Below the pieces are notes generated by a model, which was not told where the DNA came from, did not search any database, and worked only from the letters and a program-made list of their open reading frames with translations. 64,000 nt of DNA from NCBI RefSeq assembly GCF_004010195.1, contig NC_057757.1:1800985-1864984 (forward strand), written 5' to 3'. Every line of letters begins with the position of its first letter. Positions within the stretch are counted from its first letter, which is position 1. A program made the position numbers and the translations under genes. Positions 2,161 to 34,460 of this stretch are shown here, in pieces. Origin of the DNA: Chiloscyllium plagiosum. Lineage: Eukaryota.

Positions 2161-20871
<18,711 letters not shown>

Positions 20872-24247: not shown

Positions 24248-24300
24248 GTAGTCACATATCACAAGTAAAACACGACCAACAAACATGTCGTATCATTTCA

Positions 24301-24306
24301 TTTATT
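24301..24306 (-). terminator. Candidate polyadenylation signal of TMEM95
   Basis: AATAAA on the minus strand about 280 nt after the stop codon. Confidence 0.4.
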
Positions 24307-24584
24307 GTGGAGTTTGGAGGTTATGGTCGGTAAAGATCAGCAGAAGTACATTATTAAGCAACAGCAGTTCTCGAGCACATGTTCTTTACAGTAATGTGAA
24401 TAAATTAAAAGCAACGACAATTGAATCGGTTTTCAAGTAGGACTAACTTTTCTTTGAATATACAGCTTGATTTAACGAAGGTTAATTTGGATTTATACAA
24501 CAAGGCAGCATCGGAACCTGTCTGTAGGCTTCATGTTCACATTACAATTTGATTCTGAGGTGTGCATTCTCTAAACTCCGTCCT

Positions 24585-24627
24585 CTACTCAAACTGATGG
24601 TCTGCCTCAGCTCGGAACTTCCTTGAT
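24585..24627 (-). CDS. TMEM95: TMEM95 exon 7 (cytoplasmic tail, stop)
   Basis: cccaacag|[14 protein letters not shown]; phase matches exon 6. Confidence 0.8.
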
Positions 24628-27600
24628 CTGTTGGGAAAGATTTCACAAAATTTTGGACATTTTTTGTGGAAAGGAAGAGAAACGCACTGGATTCTTAAAC
24701 TGCGAAACAAAAACATGAAATTATGGAAACTGCCAGTGAGGCAGCAACTGTGGGGAGAGAGAGAGAAAAAAACAGTGAACGTTTTAGGTTGATGAACTTT
24801 CATCGGAAAAACTTGTTTTCCCATAGCACCTTGCATGATCTTAAAAAACCAACAGTCCCTTACAGCTAATGAAGCATCTTTTGTCAATTGTAATCCCGTT
24901 GTAAAGCTAGAGGCACATGTGCACTGAGTGGTATAATGGTAATGTTAATGTTACTTTATCAGTGATCCAGAGGCCCAACCTAATGTTCTGGACACATGAA
25001 TTTGCATCCCACCACAGTGAAGCATGAAAATTTAATTCTAGAAAAAGCTGGAGCTGCAAGGTAGGTTAATGGTGTCACATTCAATTGTGAATGGTGGTGG
25101 TCAATTAACAATTAACGGGAGGAGGGGGAAAGGTTGTTGTAATTGACCCCATCCCAAATCCATTCCCTTCACCAGCAATGACAGAGGAGCCCAGCACATA
25201 AAATCAAAAGACAACACTGATGCATTTATAATCCATCTTGGCCCCATGCGATGGTCCCAAGCATCGCAGGCACCAGTCTTCAATCAGTTTGGTTGAATGT
25301 GATGTTGAGAAACAGCTGATGTGTGGATATTACAAAGGCTATGGACCCTGACACATTCCAGCTATGGTACTGAAGACTTGTCCTTCAGAACTATCTGCAG
25401 ACCTAGCCAAGCCAATCCAGTACAACTACAACATAGACATCATGTGGAAGGTTACTCAGGTGAAAAGCAGGGGCAAATCCAGCCCAGCCAATTACTGCCA
25501 TATCAATTTACTCCCTATCGTTAGTAAAGCAATGGAATGGGTCATTGACAGTGCTATCAAGCAGCACTTTGAAAGGAAATAGAGTGCTCACTGATGCTCA
25601 GTTTGACTCCCACCAGAGCTATGATTTCACCTGACTTCATTATAGCCCTGGTCAGTAAAGATGAATTCCAAAAGTAACATGTACAGGACTGCCACTGAAA
25701 TCAAGGCAGTATTCACTCTATCCACGCCCCTCTTGATTTTATAAACTTCTAAACGGTCACCTCACAGCCTCGGAGACTCCAGGGAAAATAGCAGTCCTAC
25801 CCTGGAAACATCCTTGTAAATCTTTTCTGCACCTTTTTAAGTTTCACATCTTTCCTACAGCAGGGAGACCAGAACTGAACGCAGTATTCCAAAAGTGGCC
25901 TAACCAATGTCCTGCCGGGGAAGAGTGAGGCCACTGCTTGGGGTGGGGGTGCGGGGGGGGGGGCAGAGGATCCTGCCGGGGAAGAGTGAGGCCACTGCTT
26001 GGGGTGGGGGTGGGGGGGGGGGGGCAGAGGAGAACACTTTAAGAATGAGATAAGTGTCCTGAAAGCTGTTTATTTTTATAACATTCCAACCAGGATCAGG
26101 CAGCTCAGCAGACGGTGGGGACTGAGCCTAGAACTGTCCCATTTGTTTGGCCAGTTTGAGTCACCATCAGGCAGGCTGCTTGACAGAGAATTTATTTTAA
26201 TATTACCAACTTCTTCCCTTGCTCATTTGTGTCAGGTTTAAACTGAACAATGGTTACAAATGCTGTAACCTTTCCACTCTGGAAATACATGGTTCAGAAA
26301 CTCCAGCTATCGGGAAATACATGTTGCAGGCTGCAAAGACTCATGGCACAATTTTAGGACAGTGCTTTGGGTGTAGAAACAGTTAAGATGCTTGGATAAG
26401 TAAAACTATTTTTATTACTGTTTTGTAATGTTTGTGCTTCCAATAAGTGTCTTATATCTGCAGCGTTTACTGGTACATGTATTTGTGGTTAGGCATTCTG
26501 ATTTCATTTTATAACCGAGAAAACTCCAAAATTTGGAAATAGCTCAATCCCAAGCATTCTGGACTAGAGAGGTTACAGCGTATAGTAGAGAGAAAGACAT
26601 GTTACAAAGGCTGTTAATCACATTTACTGGGAAGCTTGATAAACACTTCGAGGAGAAATGAATAGAAGGTTCTGTTAGAGGGAATTGAAGAGTGGGGGGG
26701 GGGGGTGACAGGAGGCTTGTTTGAAGCATTAACGTTAGCACAGACTATATGGACTAGAACGGCCTGTTTTGTTGCTTTAAGTTACAGGCAATTTGGTCGT
26801 AATCTCTCATTAACTTACTCGAAAATGAGCGTTATGCAACCAATCAATATCGAGCCGGTTGATAGGCCAACTATCAGATAAATGGATTCTTTCAGATCTA
26901 GCCTGTCTGTTGGAAGATCAAGGTGAAACGTTAGAATCTTGCAATGTAGACGGAGGCTATTCAGCCCATCATGCAAGTGAAAGCTCTTTCAGAGAGCTAT
27001 GCTATTCATCCCTCTGTTCCCATGTCACACCCTCCCCACAGCCATGAGAAAAGGGACTTGTTACTTTGGTCAGTTTGATCCCGGTGATGAGCACTGAACT
27101 GTCCAGCTGAGCGAGATGTGGCACCCACCCTATAGAGTGTTGGGCAGCTGCAGCCCAAATTATTATCCTACTTGCTGCCCTAAAACCCCATCCTATCCCA
27201 CTGCTGTCCTTCCATTCTCCCAATGTACAATGGCAACACAAGACCAGATCATGAGCTTGGTGGTTTCTCAGGGGTTAGTGGTGGTGGTGTTCTATTTTAT
27301 TTATTCACAGGATGAGGGTATTGCTGGCTAGGCCAGCATTTATTGCCTACCCCTAATTGCCCAGAGCGCAGTTCAAGAGTTAAGCACATTGCTATGGGTG
27401 TGGGGTCACATATAGGTCAAACCACATAATGATGCTAGTTTCCTTCACTTAAGGAGATTAGTAAACCAGGTGGGTTCATGGATTTGTGGATTCATGGTCA
27501 TCATTAGACTCTTAATTCCAGATCTTCTATTGAATTCAAATTCCACCATTTACCGTGGTGGGATTTGAACCCAGGTGCCCAGGCATTATCTGGGTCCCTG

Positions 27601-30600
27601 GATTAACAGTTACAAATACAGGAGGGATTTGAGAGGGAAGTGGGGAGGTAGAGGTAAGAATACCTGTTGGGAGTTGGACATTGGGCTGGAAGGTGAGTTT
27701 CGGTTTCTTTGCGGCTCAGTGGATAATCTTCTAGCCCTTGAGCATCTACTGTGTCAGGTTTCATGTCCCCTTTACGATCCGTGCTCAGAATGGTCTCCCC
27801 TTCAACTTCACTACCTATCCATCCAAGGAGTGTCTTCTCAAGCCTCCCAATCTGCATCAGCTCTCAATTATTCCACAGGCCTCCCTCCTCCAATAAAGGT
27901 ACATTCACACAGGCCTCCCCTCACTCCCAGAAGGCCCTGACCCTGTCCATTCATTGGGTGGGCCCCTGTGAAAGTTGACTGAAATGAAGTTGCCCCATAT
28001 CCTTCTGACTGTCCCTGAAAACTCAGGCCCTCAGTGTTTGGAGACATTGTGGCCCTGCGTCTCGTTCAACATTGAGGGTGGTGTGATGGTGGTGAGAGGC
28101 TTTACTCACTAGGCCAGCAGGTCTTCAGACTCCAGCAGTTGACCTCCACCTCCAGGCACGTGGTGCAGTTTATAACAGTCGTGGAGTCCCCTGGACAGAC
28201 AAGGAGAGCAGGACCAGTTCAGCAACAACCAGAAGCCATTCCGGGATATTCCAACGATGAGTTGCTAGACACCTTTCCCACCTCCCCCCCCCCCGCCTCC
28301 ACCCGCCCGCCTTGATTGTTCAAGCAACAGGAAAGTGCAGAGCAGGTCAGGAGACATTGGTGAAGGGGAAATAACTGTTAGATTAGTTGGGGGGGGGGGC
28401 ATTTCAAACCCCAGTAGCTGATGTTATCTTCTGTTGGGGCTTGAGTTCAATTTCCATCTGATGTCATGGGATTCCAACCTGGCTAAAACTGCCACTCATT
28501 CACCTTCCTCTTTCTCCTACCACCCTGCAACTCTTGGCGAACTCTTTCCCCCTCTTATCTCTCTCTCTCCACTGATGTTCCATGATAAAATGCTTCCCAC
28601 TGAGGTTCCAGTTCTGCTTAGATGTATTCTGAGGCTTAGTGAAGCAACATGAAGAAAATGTGCTGCAACTTTTTTTTAGGCTTCTTTTATTCCAACTCAG
28701 CTTTTCTTGCCCACATCAGTGTTCAAGAGATTAGCCCTTAATTCCTGGAGACCACAGAACTATATAAGCAGCGCTAGAAGGTTGGCCAACCTGATTACTC
28801 TAACATTTCACATATTTACACCGTTCAGCTTTCTGTTTAAATAGGAAGGTGAGGCATTTTGACAAGTGTTAGCTTTCACCAGCAGGTGAAGCTTCTATTT
28901 CCAGGGTGGCACAGTGGCTAGCACTGCTGCCTCACAGCACCAGGGTCCCAAGTTCAATTCCACCCTTGGGCAACTGTCTGCATGGAGTTTGCGCATTCTC
29001 CCCGTGACTGTGTAGGTTTCCTCCAAGTGCTCTGGTTTCCCTCCAAAGATGTGCAGGCTATGTGGTCTGGCCATGGGAAATGCGGGATTACAGGGATAGG
29101 TTAGGGGGTGTCGATCTGGAATGGGATGCTCTTTGGACGGTTGGTGTGGACTTGATAGGCCAAATAGATGCTTCCACACTGCTGGGATTCAATGGTTTCC
29201 ACTCTATAGGAGCCAAGGGGTCAAAGTCTCTCTCTGTCTGTCCTGAAGTCACATGACACCAGATTATTGTCCAAAAGGTGAAACAACAGTGCTCCGAAAG
29301 CTTGTGATTTCAAATAAACCTTTTGGACTATAAGCTGGTGTTGTGTGACTTCTGAATTTGTCCAACCCCGTCCAACACCCGCACCTCCATATTATCTCTC
29401 TCTCTCTAAGATGCTCTGAACAGGTTCGGGATTAAGCCAAGGAGACTTCCTGATCTGTGAGACTCAAGACATGATTACACACACTGAATTTCCAATGGAG
29501 TGCATTTTGGTGATATTTCCATAGTGGGGCTTTGAATTCCAGGCTGTCCATCCCAGATCTGATAGCTTGCTGTACCCTAACCCTAATTTTAAGGAGGCTG
29601 TAGGCTATACTCACTGCATTTGGGGGCACACATGGCTGCAGAGAAAAAAAGAAGAGTTTAATCAATTACCAAGAAGTAGCACTTCTATCACACCTTTAAT
29701 GCATTGAAATGCCCCAAGACAACAGCATTGTTATCAGAACAAAATTTACATGGGCAAATATTGGGTCACGAGACTAAAATCCTGGGCAAATAAATAGGCT
29801 TTAAGAGGCACTTTAAAGGAGGAATAGGCAAAGATGTTGAAGGAGAAACCTTCGGTGTTAGAGCACTACAGGCACAGCTACCAATGGAAGAGTAAAGGTA
29901 ACGTGATATATGAGAGGGTGGAAGTAAGGAGATACAGATGTCACAGCACAGGGAGGAGCGAAGCCATGGAGAGATATGGACGAGCTATTGGACTGGGTTA
30001 GCAAGTACAGGCATGATGAGTGACCAGCAAGTCAGGATACAGGTTACAGAGCTTTGGATTCACCAATAGCTTTCTGACCTGGCCTGACTGACAGCAAGTC
30101 TGATGCTGCCACAAAACCATACAGAAAACAAGTAGAAAATGTCTGACCTAATTTTTCATCTGAAAAAACAATGAGATTCTCCTGTGGTTTGCTCAAGAGT
30201 TTTCATAGATTTGCAATGATAGAGTGTCTTTCTCAATCTTGGGATGTCCCAGAATGCTTTGCAGCAAACTCCTATAAATACCAATGGGATAAGATGATGA
30301 GATAATCTATTTTTGGTGGTGCTGGCTAAGGGATAAATATTTTTCAGGATGCCAGCGATAACATGTCTGCTCTTTAAGAGTATCTCTTTACATCCACCTG
30401 AGAGAGCACAGGAGGGGCCTTTGTTAAACTTTTCCACTTAAAAATGACACTTCCAACAGTGTGGCACACTCTCTCTGTACTACAGTAGGAGTACAATGCT
30501 AGACTTTGTGATCAGGTTTCTACAACATGATTTGAACCAACAATTTTCTGACACAGAGACGACCCACAGTTACGCCACAGTCAACTCTATTAATATCCAG

Positions 30601-32204
30601 TAGTGGGAGAGTTATTATCCAGAGCACTGTCTCTGAGGCAGAAGGTGAGAGAAATTAGCATAACTCCAAACAGCCACATAATGGAGCAACAGCTCTCACT
30701 GTTAGATGAACATCTAGTGTTGACAGTTGTCTCTGATGAATGTGGGTGCCTACCATCCACTTTTGCCAACTGAGTGTTGCTCATGTTTGATGTTTGAGTG
30801 AGGATCTGTCTTCTGGACGGCAACAATTATTTTAAAAGTATGAACAACAAATGTCTTCTCACCCTCTTGGGTCAATTTTGGAAGCTTTACTTCATAGAGC
30901 CAGTTCCAAAAGATAGGCAAGTCTGTTAGGGTCTGGTTGATCTCTGTGGAGACAGATGCACATGCAGAGATTGTGATGGTCATTCTCAAGACTAGCATCT
31001 ATAGTATAGTATACAGGTAGAAGAATAATCCTGCCTACCTATCACTCGTAGAACACGGTGGACCTTTTCTGAGATCATATCAACCAACACTTCATCTGGG
31101 TAGAAAAATAGCAGTATCATATTTTTACCATTATTGAATAAAATTGATCTCTTATATATTAGAGTTGATCTTTCTCTGCACGGTCTTTACAGCTGTAACA
31201 CTATATTCTGCACTGTGCTCTATTACCCGGATGTAGTTATGTGTTTGTCTGGTTAGCAGCAATATGATATTTTTCACTGCATCTCGGTACATGGACAGCA
31301 GTAAATCAAATCAAAATTCCATCCCACAGAATCTCAGTGAAGCCCCTTCTTATTCTTTTCCACTGGACAGAATTCTACTGCACTCAAACTACTTCCTTTC
31401 CATTACCATTACAGAGAACTCAAACATAATCTTCCCCCCCCCCCCCATTTTATAGGAAGACTTAGGAACCAAATGCCTTCCTGTGCCTTCTCATTGCTCA
31501 TGGACAGGTTTCTCTGATTGAGGAGAGACCTCAACAAATGAATGGTCTGTTCCTGTACTGTAAATACTTGCTAATTAATGTTTCCACAACTGGAAATCTG
31601 ATAATACTTAGAGGTAACAATAATGATCTTGATTTAAAGTACCTCTATTTGTCTGATTTAGCCAATTGCAAACAGTCTTTCCTAAAAATAAGGCAGTGGT
31701 GATTCTAACAAATAAAAATAAATGTATAAGAAATAGGGCAGGGATGACAGAAGCAAGACAGCGAATGTTTTAATTGCAAGGAGGAAGCAGTGTTAAAGTT
31801 TCAGGCCTGATCGGGTGGTGGATACAGACCAAATAGTAGTTTTCAAAGGAGAAGAAGAAACACAGGAAGGAGAAAAAATAGTTGAAGGGATATGTGGAAA
31901 GGACACAAAAGTGGAACTAACTGGACTGGCATTCAAAACTGCTGCCAAATAGCTGTTGGTGAACTGCATCACACAATGATTCTATTCTGTAATAGGTCAC
32001 CTCACCAAATAGAAATTTATTCAGGTCTGCATCTGTGTACTTTGTGCAGTTTGTAGTCTCTGTCAGTGCCTTGTACTCCCCACACAGCTTCTCGAATCTG
32101 TCTCTTACTCTTTTGTGTGGAAAAGCACAGAACATACAGGCTTCAGCCTTCAATGAAACTCCCAGCCAGAAGCTGGCCACCATCACAGTGCTGGCTGTCT
32201 TCAT
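24585..32204 (-). CDS. TMEM95: TMEM95, sperm-egg fusion membrane protein (IZUMO-like fold), complete 7-exon CDS, 189 aa
   Basis: Exons 32006-32204, 31039-31095, 30863-30943, 29615-29635, 28110-28190, 26819-26906, 24585-24627 (570 nt, all GT-AG, phases consistent). Protein [189 protein letters not shown]. It aligns to recalled human TMEM95 motifs (ACVFC, DEVSMNKVTEKTHRVLRVMEI, LPSYWSWL, ALCPPACRGSTTLYNCSTC, SCWPRKRCFP). Confidence 0.92.
25910..26031 (+). repeat. 61-bp G-rich tandem duplication
   Basis: TCCTGCCGGGGAAGAGTGAGGCCACTGCTTGGGGTGGGGGTG..GGGCAGAGGA twice (25910, 25971). Confidence 0.85.
26819..26906 (-). CDS. TMEM95: TMEM95 exon 6 (transmembrane helix)
   Basis: [29 protein letters not shown]|gtaagt. 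Confidence 0.88.
28110..28190 (-). CDS. TMEM95: TMEM95 exon 5
   Basis: [27 protein letters not shown], 81 nt. Confidence 0.92.
28903..29195 (+). mobile_element. HE1 SINE
   Basis: GGGTGGCACAGTGGCTAGCACTGCTGCC..AAGTTCAATTCC. Confidence 0.85.
29615..29635 (-). CDS. TMEM95: TMEM95 exon 4 (21-nt microexon)
   Basis: Long pyrimidine tract, cag|AMCAPKC|gtgagt. Confidence 0.88.
30863..30943 (-). CDS. TMEM95: TMEM95 exon 3
   Basis: [27 protein letters not shown], 81 nt. Confidence 0.92.
31039..31095 (-). CDS. TMEM95: TMEM95 exon 2 (HRVLR)
   Basis: [19 protein letters not shown], 57 nt. Confidence 0.92.
32006..32204 (-). CDS. TMEM95: TMEM95 exon 1 (signal peptide, CxxC)
   Basis: [26 protein letters not shown]...LNKFLF G|gtgagg. 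Confidence 0.9.
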
Positions 32205-33490: not shown

Positions 33491-33689
33491 AAGGAAATGG
33501 TTTCACGGTCATCATTGGTCTCTGTATTAATTATAATTGCCTGCCCTTTGAACTGTCAGGAGGTCAGAGTGCTTTTGTTTTCAAATCAGCCTGTTTTGTG
33601 ATGGGTCACCTGCTCCACAGGTAAGGACACACCTGCAGCACCAGAAGGGGCCTCAGAAGCAGAGAAAGTGCTGCCACCTTCTGGGGAAC

Positions 33690-34460
33690 GACCGCCAAAC
33701 CCGCCCCGTGACGCCATCACGTCGCCCCCCCCCCCCCATTGTGTCGCGGGTCGGCGCACTGACGTCACGGCGCCGCCGGCCGTTTCCTTCAGCCTGCACC
33801 AAGATGGAAGTGGGCGAGCGGGACAAGTGCGCCTTCAAGGCGATGTTCCCGGCCTTCGGCGCCGGCCGCGGGCCCGTCCGCTCGTCGCTGGTGTGCCAGC
33901 AGCCGGTCGTCGTGCTGTCGGTGGAGAGGTACCCGCGGGATCCGGGGAGCGGCGGCGGCGGCGGCGGCCTGTGGGAGGCGCCGGGCGAGGGCGACCTGTA
34001 CGACCTGAGCCTGTCGGAGGGCCACTGCCGCCTGCGGGTGGTGCTGCGGCCGTCCCTCAACTGGACGGTCCGCCGCAACCTGCTGAGCAGCGGCTGCGAG
34101 CTGAGCAACGTCCGCCTCGCCCTGGAGTACGACGAGAGGCGCCTGGGAGTCGGCTTGCTTGTCTTCGTGCTGCTGGAGGCCCAGGTGGTTGCCTGGGGAG
34201 ACGGCAAGGCGCCCCCTGCCGTCCGGAGGCTGAGACTGCAGAAGCTGCACGTGTTCAACGAGGGCACTGAGCTGCCCATTGGCCCAGAGCTGCCCATCAA
34301 AGCCAAGAGGCGCTACTACCTTTCTCTGTGGGATGCTGCCAATTACTATGGGGAGGCTTGGCACCGACACCCGCCTGGGCAACCCACTCAGCGATTTGAA
34401 GGTGAACTGGCAGTGCTCAGACCCGAAGAACGGTCGCAGCAGGCGTAAACCGCTGAAAGA
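33690..34460. promoter_or_regulatory. CpG island / RADX promoter and first exon, with a full CRE site
   Basis: Only strongly GC- and CpG-rich stretch in the window; TGACGTCA at 33760-33767, half-CRE near 33709, YY1-like CAAGATGG over the ATG. Confidence 0.8.
33804..34401 (+). CDS. RADX: RADX exon 1 (first OB fold)
   Basis: MEVGERDK...QQPVVVLSVERY...LYDLSLSEG...KRRYYLSLWDAANYYGEAW...FE G|gtgaac. Confidence 0.87.

Follow-up and report, generated by a model that had tools for sequence, protein, structure and literature searches.

In a 64,000-nucleotide stretch of the genome of the shark Chiloscyllium plagiosum (RefSeq assembly GCF_004010195.1, contig NC_057757.1, positions 1,800,985 to 1,864,984; hereafter the window, in whose own numbering positions are given) we find a gene for TMEM95, a protein of the sperm-egg fusion machinery. 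The gene is probably a single intact TMEM95 orthologue, inherited from the jawed-vertebrate ancestor, whose product sits in the sperm membrane and aids sperm-egg fusion much as mammalian TMEM95 does. Mammalian sperm null for TMEM95 bind eggs and then fail to fuse (PMC8406655).

The gene comprises seven coding exons on the minus strand (Table 1), separated by six introns that are all GT-AG with pyrimidine-rich acceptors and phases 1, 1, 1, 1, 1 and 2. The spliced exons give a 189-aa open frame with no internal stop. Ten cysteines lie in the ectodomain (residues 23, 26, 41, 53, 115, 119, 128, 131, 138 and 144) and one more, C170, inside the transmembrane (TM) helix, and there are sequons at N52, N88 and N127. 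The hydropathy profile, with a hydrophobic N-terminus, a single 19-residue peak (2.3 at residue 157) and a tail of 14 residues, combined with alignment to the human mature start, predicts a type I topology with a signal peptide, one TM helix, a short tail and no immunoglobulin (Ig) domain. A sequence-only reading of the window had described seven GT-AG exons including a 21-nt microexon, 189 aa, ten ectodomain cysteines, a TM helix and a short tail, and proved correct in every checkable detail.

Within 28100-24620, exon 6 is the sole hydrophobic AG..GT candidate, and exon 1 is single-copy in the genome assembly. A tblastn search of the window with the catshark orthologue recovered exons 1, 2, 3, 5 and 6 with E values between 1e-32 and 1e-7, and matched the microexon at all seven of its residues (E 5.1); the coelacanth, bowfin, caecilian and platypus proteins aligned onto the same exons. 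Because these different queries find the same exons, the exon model is not a chance product.

Table 1 Features of the TMEM95 locus and its neighbours in window coordinates
Feature	Position	Strand	Description
Exon 1	32204-32006	-	199 nt; ATG, predicted signal peptide at about aa 1-22 (32204-32139), first CXXC, C41, C53; Pfam PF15203 1-34, E 8e-4; 75% identity with catshark
Exon 2	31095-31039	-	57 nt; helix with K77, R80, V81, R83, V84 (human K67, R70, V71, R73, V74); catshark X3 and Narcine X4 skip 19 residues here
Exon 3	30943-30863	-	81 nt; I87, F97, W100 (human I77, Y87, W90); Pfam PF15203 61-86, E 2e-4
Exon 4, microexon	29635-29615	-	21 nt; C115, C119; identical to catshark at 7/7 residues; Narcine X2, Spea and turtle X2 skip 7 residues here
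Exon 5	28190-28110	-	81 nt; beta-hairpin, N127 sequon, second CXXC, C138, C144; PF15203 96-120, E 1.6e-6, 28.2 bits; S. torazame and coelacanth X2 skip 27 residues here
Exon 6	26906-26819	-	88 nt; TM helix at about aa 155-175; 87% to catshark
Exon 7, coding part	24627-24585	-	43 nt with stop; short cytoplasmic tail
Likely poly(A) signal	24301-24306	-	first AATAAA 3' of the stop; judged by position and poly(A) single-cell reads nearby
Alternative first exon	33717-33633	-	ATG at 33717, GT donor after 33633; CpG island shared with RADX; RefSeq X4 splices to exon 2, skipping exon 1
RADX-family gene	33804-63186	+	head to head with TMEM95; matches Pfam PF17659 in four segments
Muscle nicotinic receptor gamma/epsilon-type subunit gene (part)	11637-19322	-	downstream of TMEM95; best match Torpedo 'gamma'

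Identification as TMEM95

Pfam was scanned with four separate exon translations (exons 1, 3, 5 and the TM exon) rather than with the spliced protein. PF15203 (TMEM95) was the only match of exons 1, 3 and 5, at 19.4, 21.5 and 28.2 bits and in model order, with exon 5 alone above the cut-off of 27; the TM exon had no Pfam match. For PDB and fold tests we used as a stand-in the catshark orthologue (Scyliorhinus canicula), which is 83% identical over aa 23-147. It matched PF15203 with 163 bits over positions 1-150 of 151. Human TMEM95 (7UX0, E 7e-34) was its only strong PDB match and one of just two at E<=10, a threshold at which neither IZUMO1 nor SPACA6 gave a sequence match; exon 1 alone matched no PDB entry.

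An AlphaFold2 (AF2) model of the catshark orthologue, built from 22 sequences (predicted local distance difference test score, pLDDT, 69.7; predicted template modelling score, pTM, 0.43), has helices at 34-49, 69-89 and 92-114 and strands at 123-128 and 133-138, and shows the IST-type fold, in which CXXC pairs link a helical bundle to a beta-hairpin hinge. Foldseek ranked 7UX0 first (E 9.4e-8, TM-score 0.60 by target, root-mean-square deviation (rmsd) 6.7), followed by IZUMO1 entries at non-significant E values of at least 0.59. VIA-align also placed 7UX0 first, with a Z of 6.9 (rmsd 4.5 over 101) that is below the tool's noise level for helical bundles. The model may owe much to 7UX0 itself. 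Another AF2 model, from a 10-sequence elasmobranch alignment, reached a pLDDT of 36 and was discarded.

The two CXXC motifs and the human pairs C35-C45, C105-C134 and C109-C128 are matched by shark C23/C26, C128/C131, C41/C53, C115/C144 and C119/C138, the shark disulfides being predicted by alignment, in which C53 meets C45 with a small offset. The hairpin N-glycan sequon N127 is 97% conserved across aligned TMEM95 sequences. Like human TMEM95 (7UX0, PF15203), the shark protein combines a signal peptide, a helical bundle with a beta-hairpin, a single TM helix, the cysteine pattern and the hairpin sequon in a seven-exon gene without an Ig domain; it differs in its extra sequons N52 and N88, in its neighbouring genes and in the loop after helix 1, which is four residues longer than in human TMEM95, as it is in amphibians and reptiles. 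Ectodomain identity to tetrapods, human included, is about 40%, and intron positions are common to both. With IZUMO1 and SPACA6, members of the IST superfamily, the shark protein shares a related helical bundle with paired CXXC motifs but lacks an Ig domain.

Because PF15203 matches occur in order in three exons, the catshark protein matches 7UX0, intron positions are common to tetrapods and a tree keeps sharks and rays together, the gene is, as judged from its sequence, a true TMEM95 orthologue. The sequence-only reading had likewise taken it as intact and as TMEM95 rather than another IZUMO-superfamily member.

Distribution and age of TMEM95

A search with exon 1 retrieved NCBI 'TMEM95-like' proteins from catshark (75%) and electric ray (65%). 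An alignment-based search gave 24 proteins which, together with a cluster look-up, cover 17 shark and ray species, 16 of them with the name TMEM95 or TMEM95-like and one (Carcharodon) as 'uncharacterized'. The full-length elasmobranch models (Scyliorhinus canicula X2, Amblyraja radiata XP_032872203.1, Hypanus and Rhinoraja) have 190 aa, the same architecture, ten cysteines and 70-83% ectodomain identity, and differ from the window protein by species-level substitutions only.

A profile search of 1.84 billion representatives returned 50 matches. Twenty of the 43 new ones were looked up, with one further search; 23 of the 50 were classed by eye without look-up (22 mammal- or reptile-like, one unrelated), and clusters at 50% can hide members. 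Outside sharks and rays, annotated TMEM95 extends to bowfin (XP_066578379.1), coelacanth (XP_014345105.1), a caecilian, a newt (unnamed) and seven frogs, and among amniotes to a snake, a lizard, turtles, alligators, platypus and placentals. Shark TMEM95 is therefore not new: databases already list it in sharks, rays, coelacanth, bowfin and frogs, and automated annotation, on which the sequence-only reading had taken no position, already labels it in sharks and rays. Among named database matches we found none from teleosts, birds, chimaera, lungfish or lamprey. CHRNE and genes of its chromosome are reported as missing from chicken assemblies, and CHRNE from ghostshark (PMC6354393). Because this region is often missing from such assemblies, absence of TMEM95 in birds and chimaera is unreliable.

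In a midpoint-rooted tree of 31 rows without outgroup, from which one near-copy and three partial models had been omitted, elasmobranchs fell on one side with support of 100/99, amphibians were grouped at 83/78 and amniotes at 80/82, and deep forks were weak. The longest branch (1.27) belongs to bowfin, the only ray-finned TMEM95 found. Among 14 isoforms picked for having an internal gap, 12 have gaps of 19, 7, 27 or 34 residues at window exon ends, and these span sharks, coelacanth, frog, turtle and mammal-like sequences. The human gene is likewise divided into seven exons, and in cattle the TM helix is encoded by exon 6 (PMC3879157). On these sequences, vertical descent from the jawed-vertebrate ancestor is the simple reading. 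A loss in teleosts would fit both the lack of teleost database matches and the zebrafish complex, whose seven subunits do not include TMEM95 (PMC13192892).

The published record has moved in the same direction. Noda 2020 (PMC7261011) placed TMEM95 mainly in mammals and Vance 2022 (PMC9482655) traced it back to amphibians, so that the 'mammal/amniote-restricted' description used in the sequence-only reading is dated. A 2025 paper on TEX51 (PMC12615630) extends IST members to sharks, according to a figure including TMEM95, and 2026 preprints state that TMEM95 predates FIMP in vertebrates and has a limited, scattered distribution. Reviews and the 2026 SPARK preprint still class TMEM95 as an additional mammalian factor. 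In a literature mostly outside subscription journals we found no text stating shark TMEM95 outright, and the 2025-26 figures may show it. Of the proposal that TMEM95 is older than assumed, the jawed-vertebrate age stands; that it lies far beyond the existing record does not, since a deep age is largely on record.

We reject the further proposal that retention is tied to internal fertilisation. Bowfin and the frogs Spea, Hyperolius, Ranitomeya, Dendropsophus, Pyxicephalus and Pseudophryne spawn externally; TMEM95 is present in bowfin and in these six genera, which account for six of the seven frogs found to carry it.

A conserved binding face and a proposed role

R70 and R73 of mammalian TMEM95 are required for egg binding (PMC9546558), and a preprint (PMC13192804) docks FIMP on K67, R70, V71, V74, I77, Y87 and W90. 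In the 7UX0 alignment these eight positions correspond to shark K77, R80, V81, R83, V84, I87, F97 and W100, and seven of the eight are identical between shark and human, Y87 being replaced by F. Across 33 other sequences the eight sites match the window residue in 89%, versus 49% at other non-cysteine ectodomain sites, in a comparison that is not independent, the set being rich in elasmobranchs and the sites partly chosen by their authors for conservation. Bowfin has three non-conservative changes at these sites (K to G, V to E and I to S).

We propose that a spermatid transcript starting upstream of 32204 would encode the signal-peptide form of TMEM95, which would fold as a disulfide-pinned helical bundle with a beta-hairpin on the acrosomal membrane. 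Its basic alpha3/alpha4 face (K77, R80, R83 and W100) may bind a partner, either sperm FIMP or a FIMP-like peptide, or an egg receptor. The SPARK/IZUMO1-SPACA6-TMEM81-DCST fusion complex would then include TMEM95 as an accessory and not as the fusogen itself. A second transcript set, from the divergent RADX CpG-island promoter, would skip exon 1 and likely yield no working protein. A more specific version of this proposal is tentative and in our view doubtful: the alpha3/alpha4 face may have stayed unchanged since the jawed-vertebrate ancestor without FIMP in sharks, the original ligand being an egg receptor or an unrecognised ancient sperm partner and FIMP a later cap, and bowfin may represent decay preceding teleost loss.

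Transcription and an alternative first exon

The RefSeq model of the gene is LOC122544303 ('sperm-egg fusion protein TMEM95-like', Chiloscyllium plagiosum), with five isoforms, XP_043539374-78. Exons 2-7 are the same as ours, and isoform X4 (XP_043539377.1) agrees with the window protein at every one of residues 67-189. The models differ at the 5' end: all five isoforms start with a RADX-side exon and lack the signal peptide, the first CXXC and helix 1, and X2 and X5 are out of frame. The RADX-side start recurs in Hemiscyllium, catshark X4 begins in another frame and the C. punctatum model begins antisense to RADX exon 1; the frame of these upstream peptides is not conserved between species. 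A word-based search returned no database protein with the window's own exon 1. Because exon 1 is open and 75% identical to catshark, the 189-aa signal-peptide form is likely to be functional, and a two-way promoter probably gives rise to the RADX-side transcripts as by-products, without a working protein. In the CpG island at 33590-34300 (GC up to 0.74), the starts on the RADX and TMEM95 sides diverge around a perfect TGACGTCA element near 33760. The donor of RefSeq X1 and X3 appears to be a GC at about 33591. In the 500 bases before the TMEM95 ATG we found no cAMP response element (CRE), TATA or other notable promoter motif.

Four sequencing runs with three species labels were aligned to the window; short and long interspersed (SINE/LINE) repeats dominate the resulting tables, and about 2% of the one true RNA run was read. 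The breaks in some RNA-type contigs coincide exactly with three predicted splice sites, and the spare letters beyond them come close in number to the length of the neighbouring exon; other contigs continue through introns. Record 1 of run X1 and record 9 of run X5 both end at 24627, the exon 7 splice site, the latter with 82 spare letters (exon 6, 88 nt); record 7 of run X1 starts from 30943 and has 60 letters to spare (exon 2, 57 nt), and record 23 of run X6 starts from 31039 and has 81 (exon 3, 81 nt). Transcription and splicing of TMEM95 are thereby indicated. In the true RNA run, a poly(A) single-cell run (X14), depth reaches 13.6 at 24250-24522, the bin of the 3' untranslated region that includes the AATAAA at 24306, but is almost nil across introns free of repeats; this pile-up is suggestive only, as 98% of the aligned reads in that run continue unlike the window.

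Genomic neighbourhood

TMEM256, a neighbour of TMEM95 at human 17p13, lies on the same scaffold as shark TMEM95, 4.3 Mb away, and this neighbourhood is also that of human CHRNE. The presence of the Torpedo-'gamma'-like gene on the scaffold of TMEM95 and TMEM256 hints that the ray nicotinic 'gamma' subunit is an epsilon orthologue. Neither nicotinic gene (gamma, epsilon) was found in ghostshark (PMC6354393).

Three RADX-family loci occur in the genome, at window 33804-63186 (+), C15:68.87-68.95 Mb and C6:64.40-64.47 Mb, and the one adjacent to TMEM95 scores lowest. Humans have one RADX, and sharks may keep RADX copies from whole-genome duplication that mammals lost. Database models of Alligator mississippiensis fuse KCTD11 with exons of TMEM95, a join that gene calling likely produced from two neighbouring genes. 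In intron 6 of shark TMEM95, at 25915-26030, a stretch of about 60 bases that includes long G runs is tandemly duplicated. Open reading frames of at least 130 aa within 100 kb on either side of the window comprised repeats and gaps only. About 85 kb to the left of the window lies a long tandem repeat with an open Ser/Thr/Asp-rich frame and an N gap inside, possibly a mucin-like exon or a minisatellite.

Alternative explanations

The gene could in principle be another IST-superfamily paralogue (IZUMO2-4, TEX51 or SPACA6-like) or a hidden TMEM95 paralogue from whole-genome duplication. Its immediate neighbours, RADX-like and nicotinic subunit genes, are unlike the KCTD11 of mammals and alligator, the tree lacks an outgroup and firm deep forks, and one turtle match is labelled IZUMO3 by UniRef; yet the cysteine pairs are TMEM95-specific, tetrapod identity and intron positions agree, TMEM256 shares the scaffold, and the window is the only real PF15203 locus in the assembly, two weak matches elsewhere containing stops. 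We regard a paralogue as extremely unlikely. Almost as improbable is a decaying gene whose signal-peptide exon is unused in this shark lineage, the locus being transcribed only as a by-product of the RADX promoter. Such decay would account for the RefSeq isoforms and for the models of C. punctatum, Hemiscyllium, Rhincodon, Stegostoma, Heterodontus and Heptranchias, which also lack exon 1. It sits poorly with an exon 1 that is open and retains its ATG, four cysteines and GT donor, besides its identity to catshark; with a terminal branch of the window protein of 0.011; with the spare letters ahead of exon 3 in record 7 of run X1, three beyond the length of exon 2; and with RADX-side peptides not conserved in frame across species. 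A TMEM95 orthologue that has some other sperm role in sharks, in acrosome or head formation, complex stability or egg-coat passage, as with mouse IZUMO3 and TEX51, and not in fusion, is unlikely, if less so. The roles of IST-family members do vary (PMC12615630, Table 1), the seven subunits of the core with which zebrafish fertilise do not include TMEM95 (PMC13192892), and FIMP is reported to be younger than TMEM95; against this, no non-cysteine part is better conserved from shark to human than the surface linked to egg binding (R70, R73) and to FIMP binding.

Our preferred reading, an intact orthologue with a mammal-like role in fusion, has its own points to answer. GPS2 lies on a different scaffold from TMEM95, and a stricter first-look search gave no BTB hit on the TMEM95 scaffold (16 genome-wide), so that KCTD11 adjacency was not seen. 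Exon 1 is lacking from five of five RefSeq isoforms and from the models examined for six other sharks, and the RNA behind those models therefore came mostly from the RADX-side promoter. No exon-exon joint was among the joints listed, the exon 1-to-2 junction was not seen directly, and the runs carry no tissue labels. The shark ectodomain is overall not basic (isoelectric point 6.15). FIMP (PF17672) had no match in the genome assembly, with none of four candidates scored, by a method that also misses IZUMO. A FIMP motif search of the assembly gave two matches (reversed control, 40), neither FIMP-like, again by a method that misses IZUMO, and a search of the assembly for HIRIP3, a FIMP neighbour, gave none. 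Because the IZUMO control search also returned nothing, these FIMP searches are uninformative. In the literature examined we found no functional test of TMEM95 outside mammals.

Implications

The presence of an intact, constrained gene in sharks, rays, coelacanth, bowfin and frogs marks TMEM95 as an ancestral jawed-vertebrate component, one apparently lost by teleosts. The zebrafish complex of seven subunits may accordingly be a reduced version and not the ancestral state. The added value for this shark is modest, namely a corrected gene model and a conserved binding face. Conservation from shark to human spans about 450 million years, and because it falls on the face where FIMP and a putative egg receptor compete, it helps to decide which ligand came first. 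Frogs offer an external-fertiliser system in which TMEM95 can be tested.

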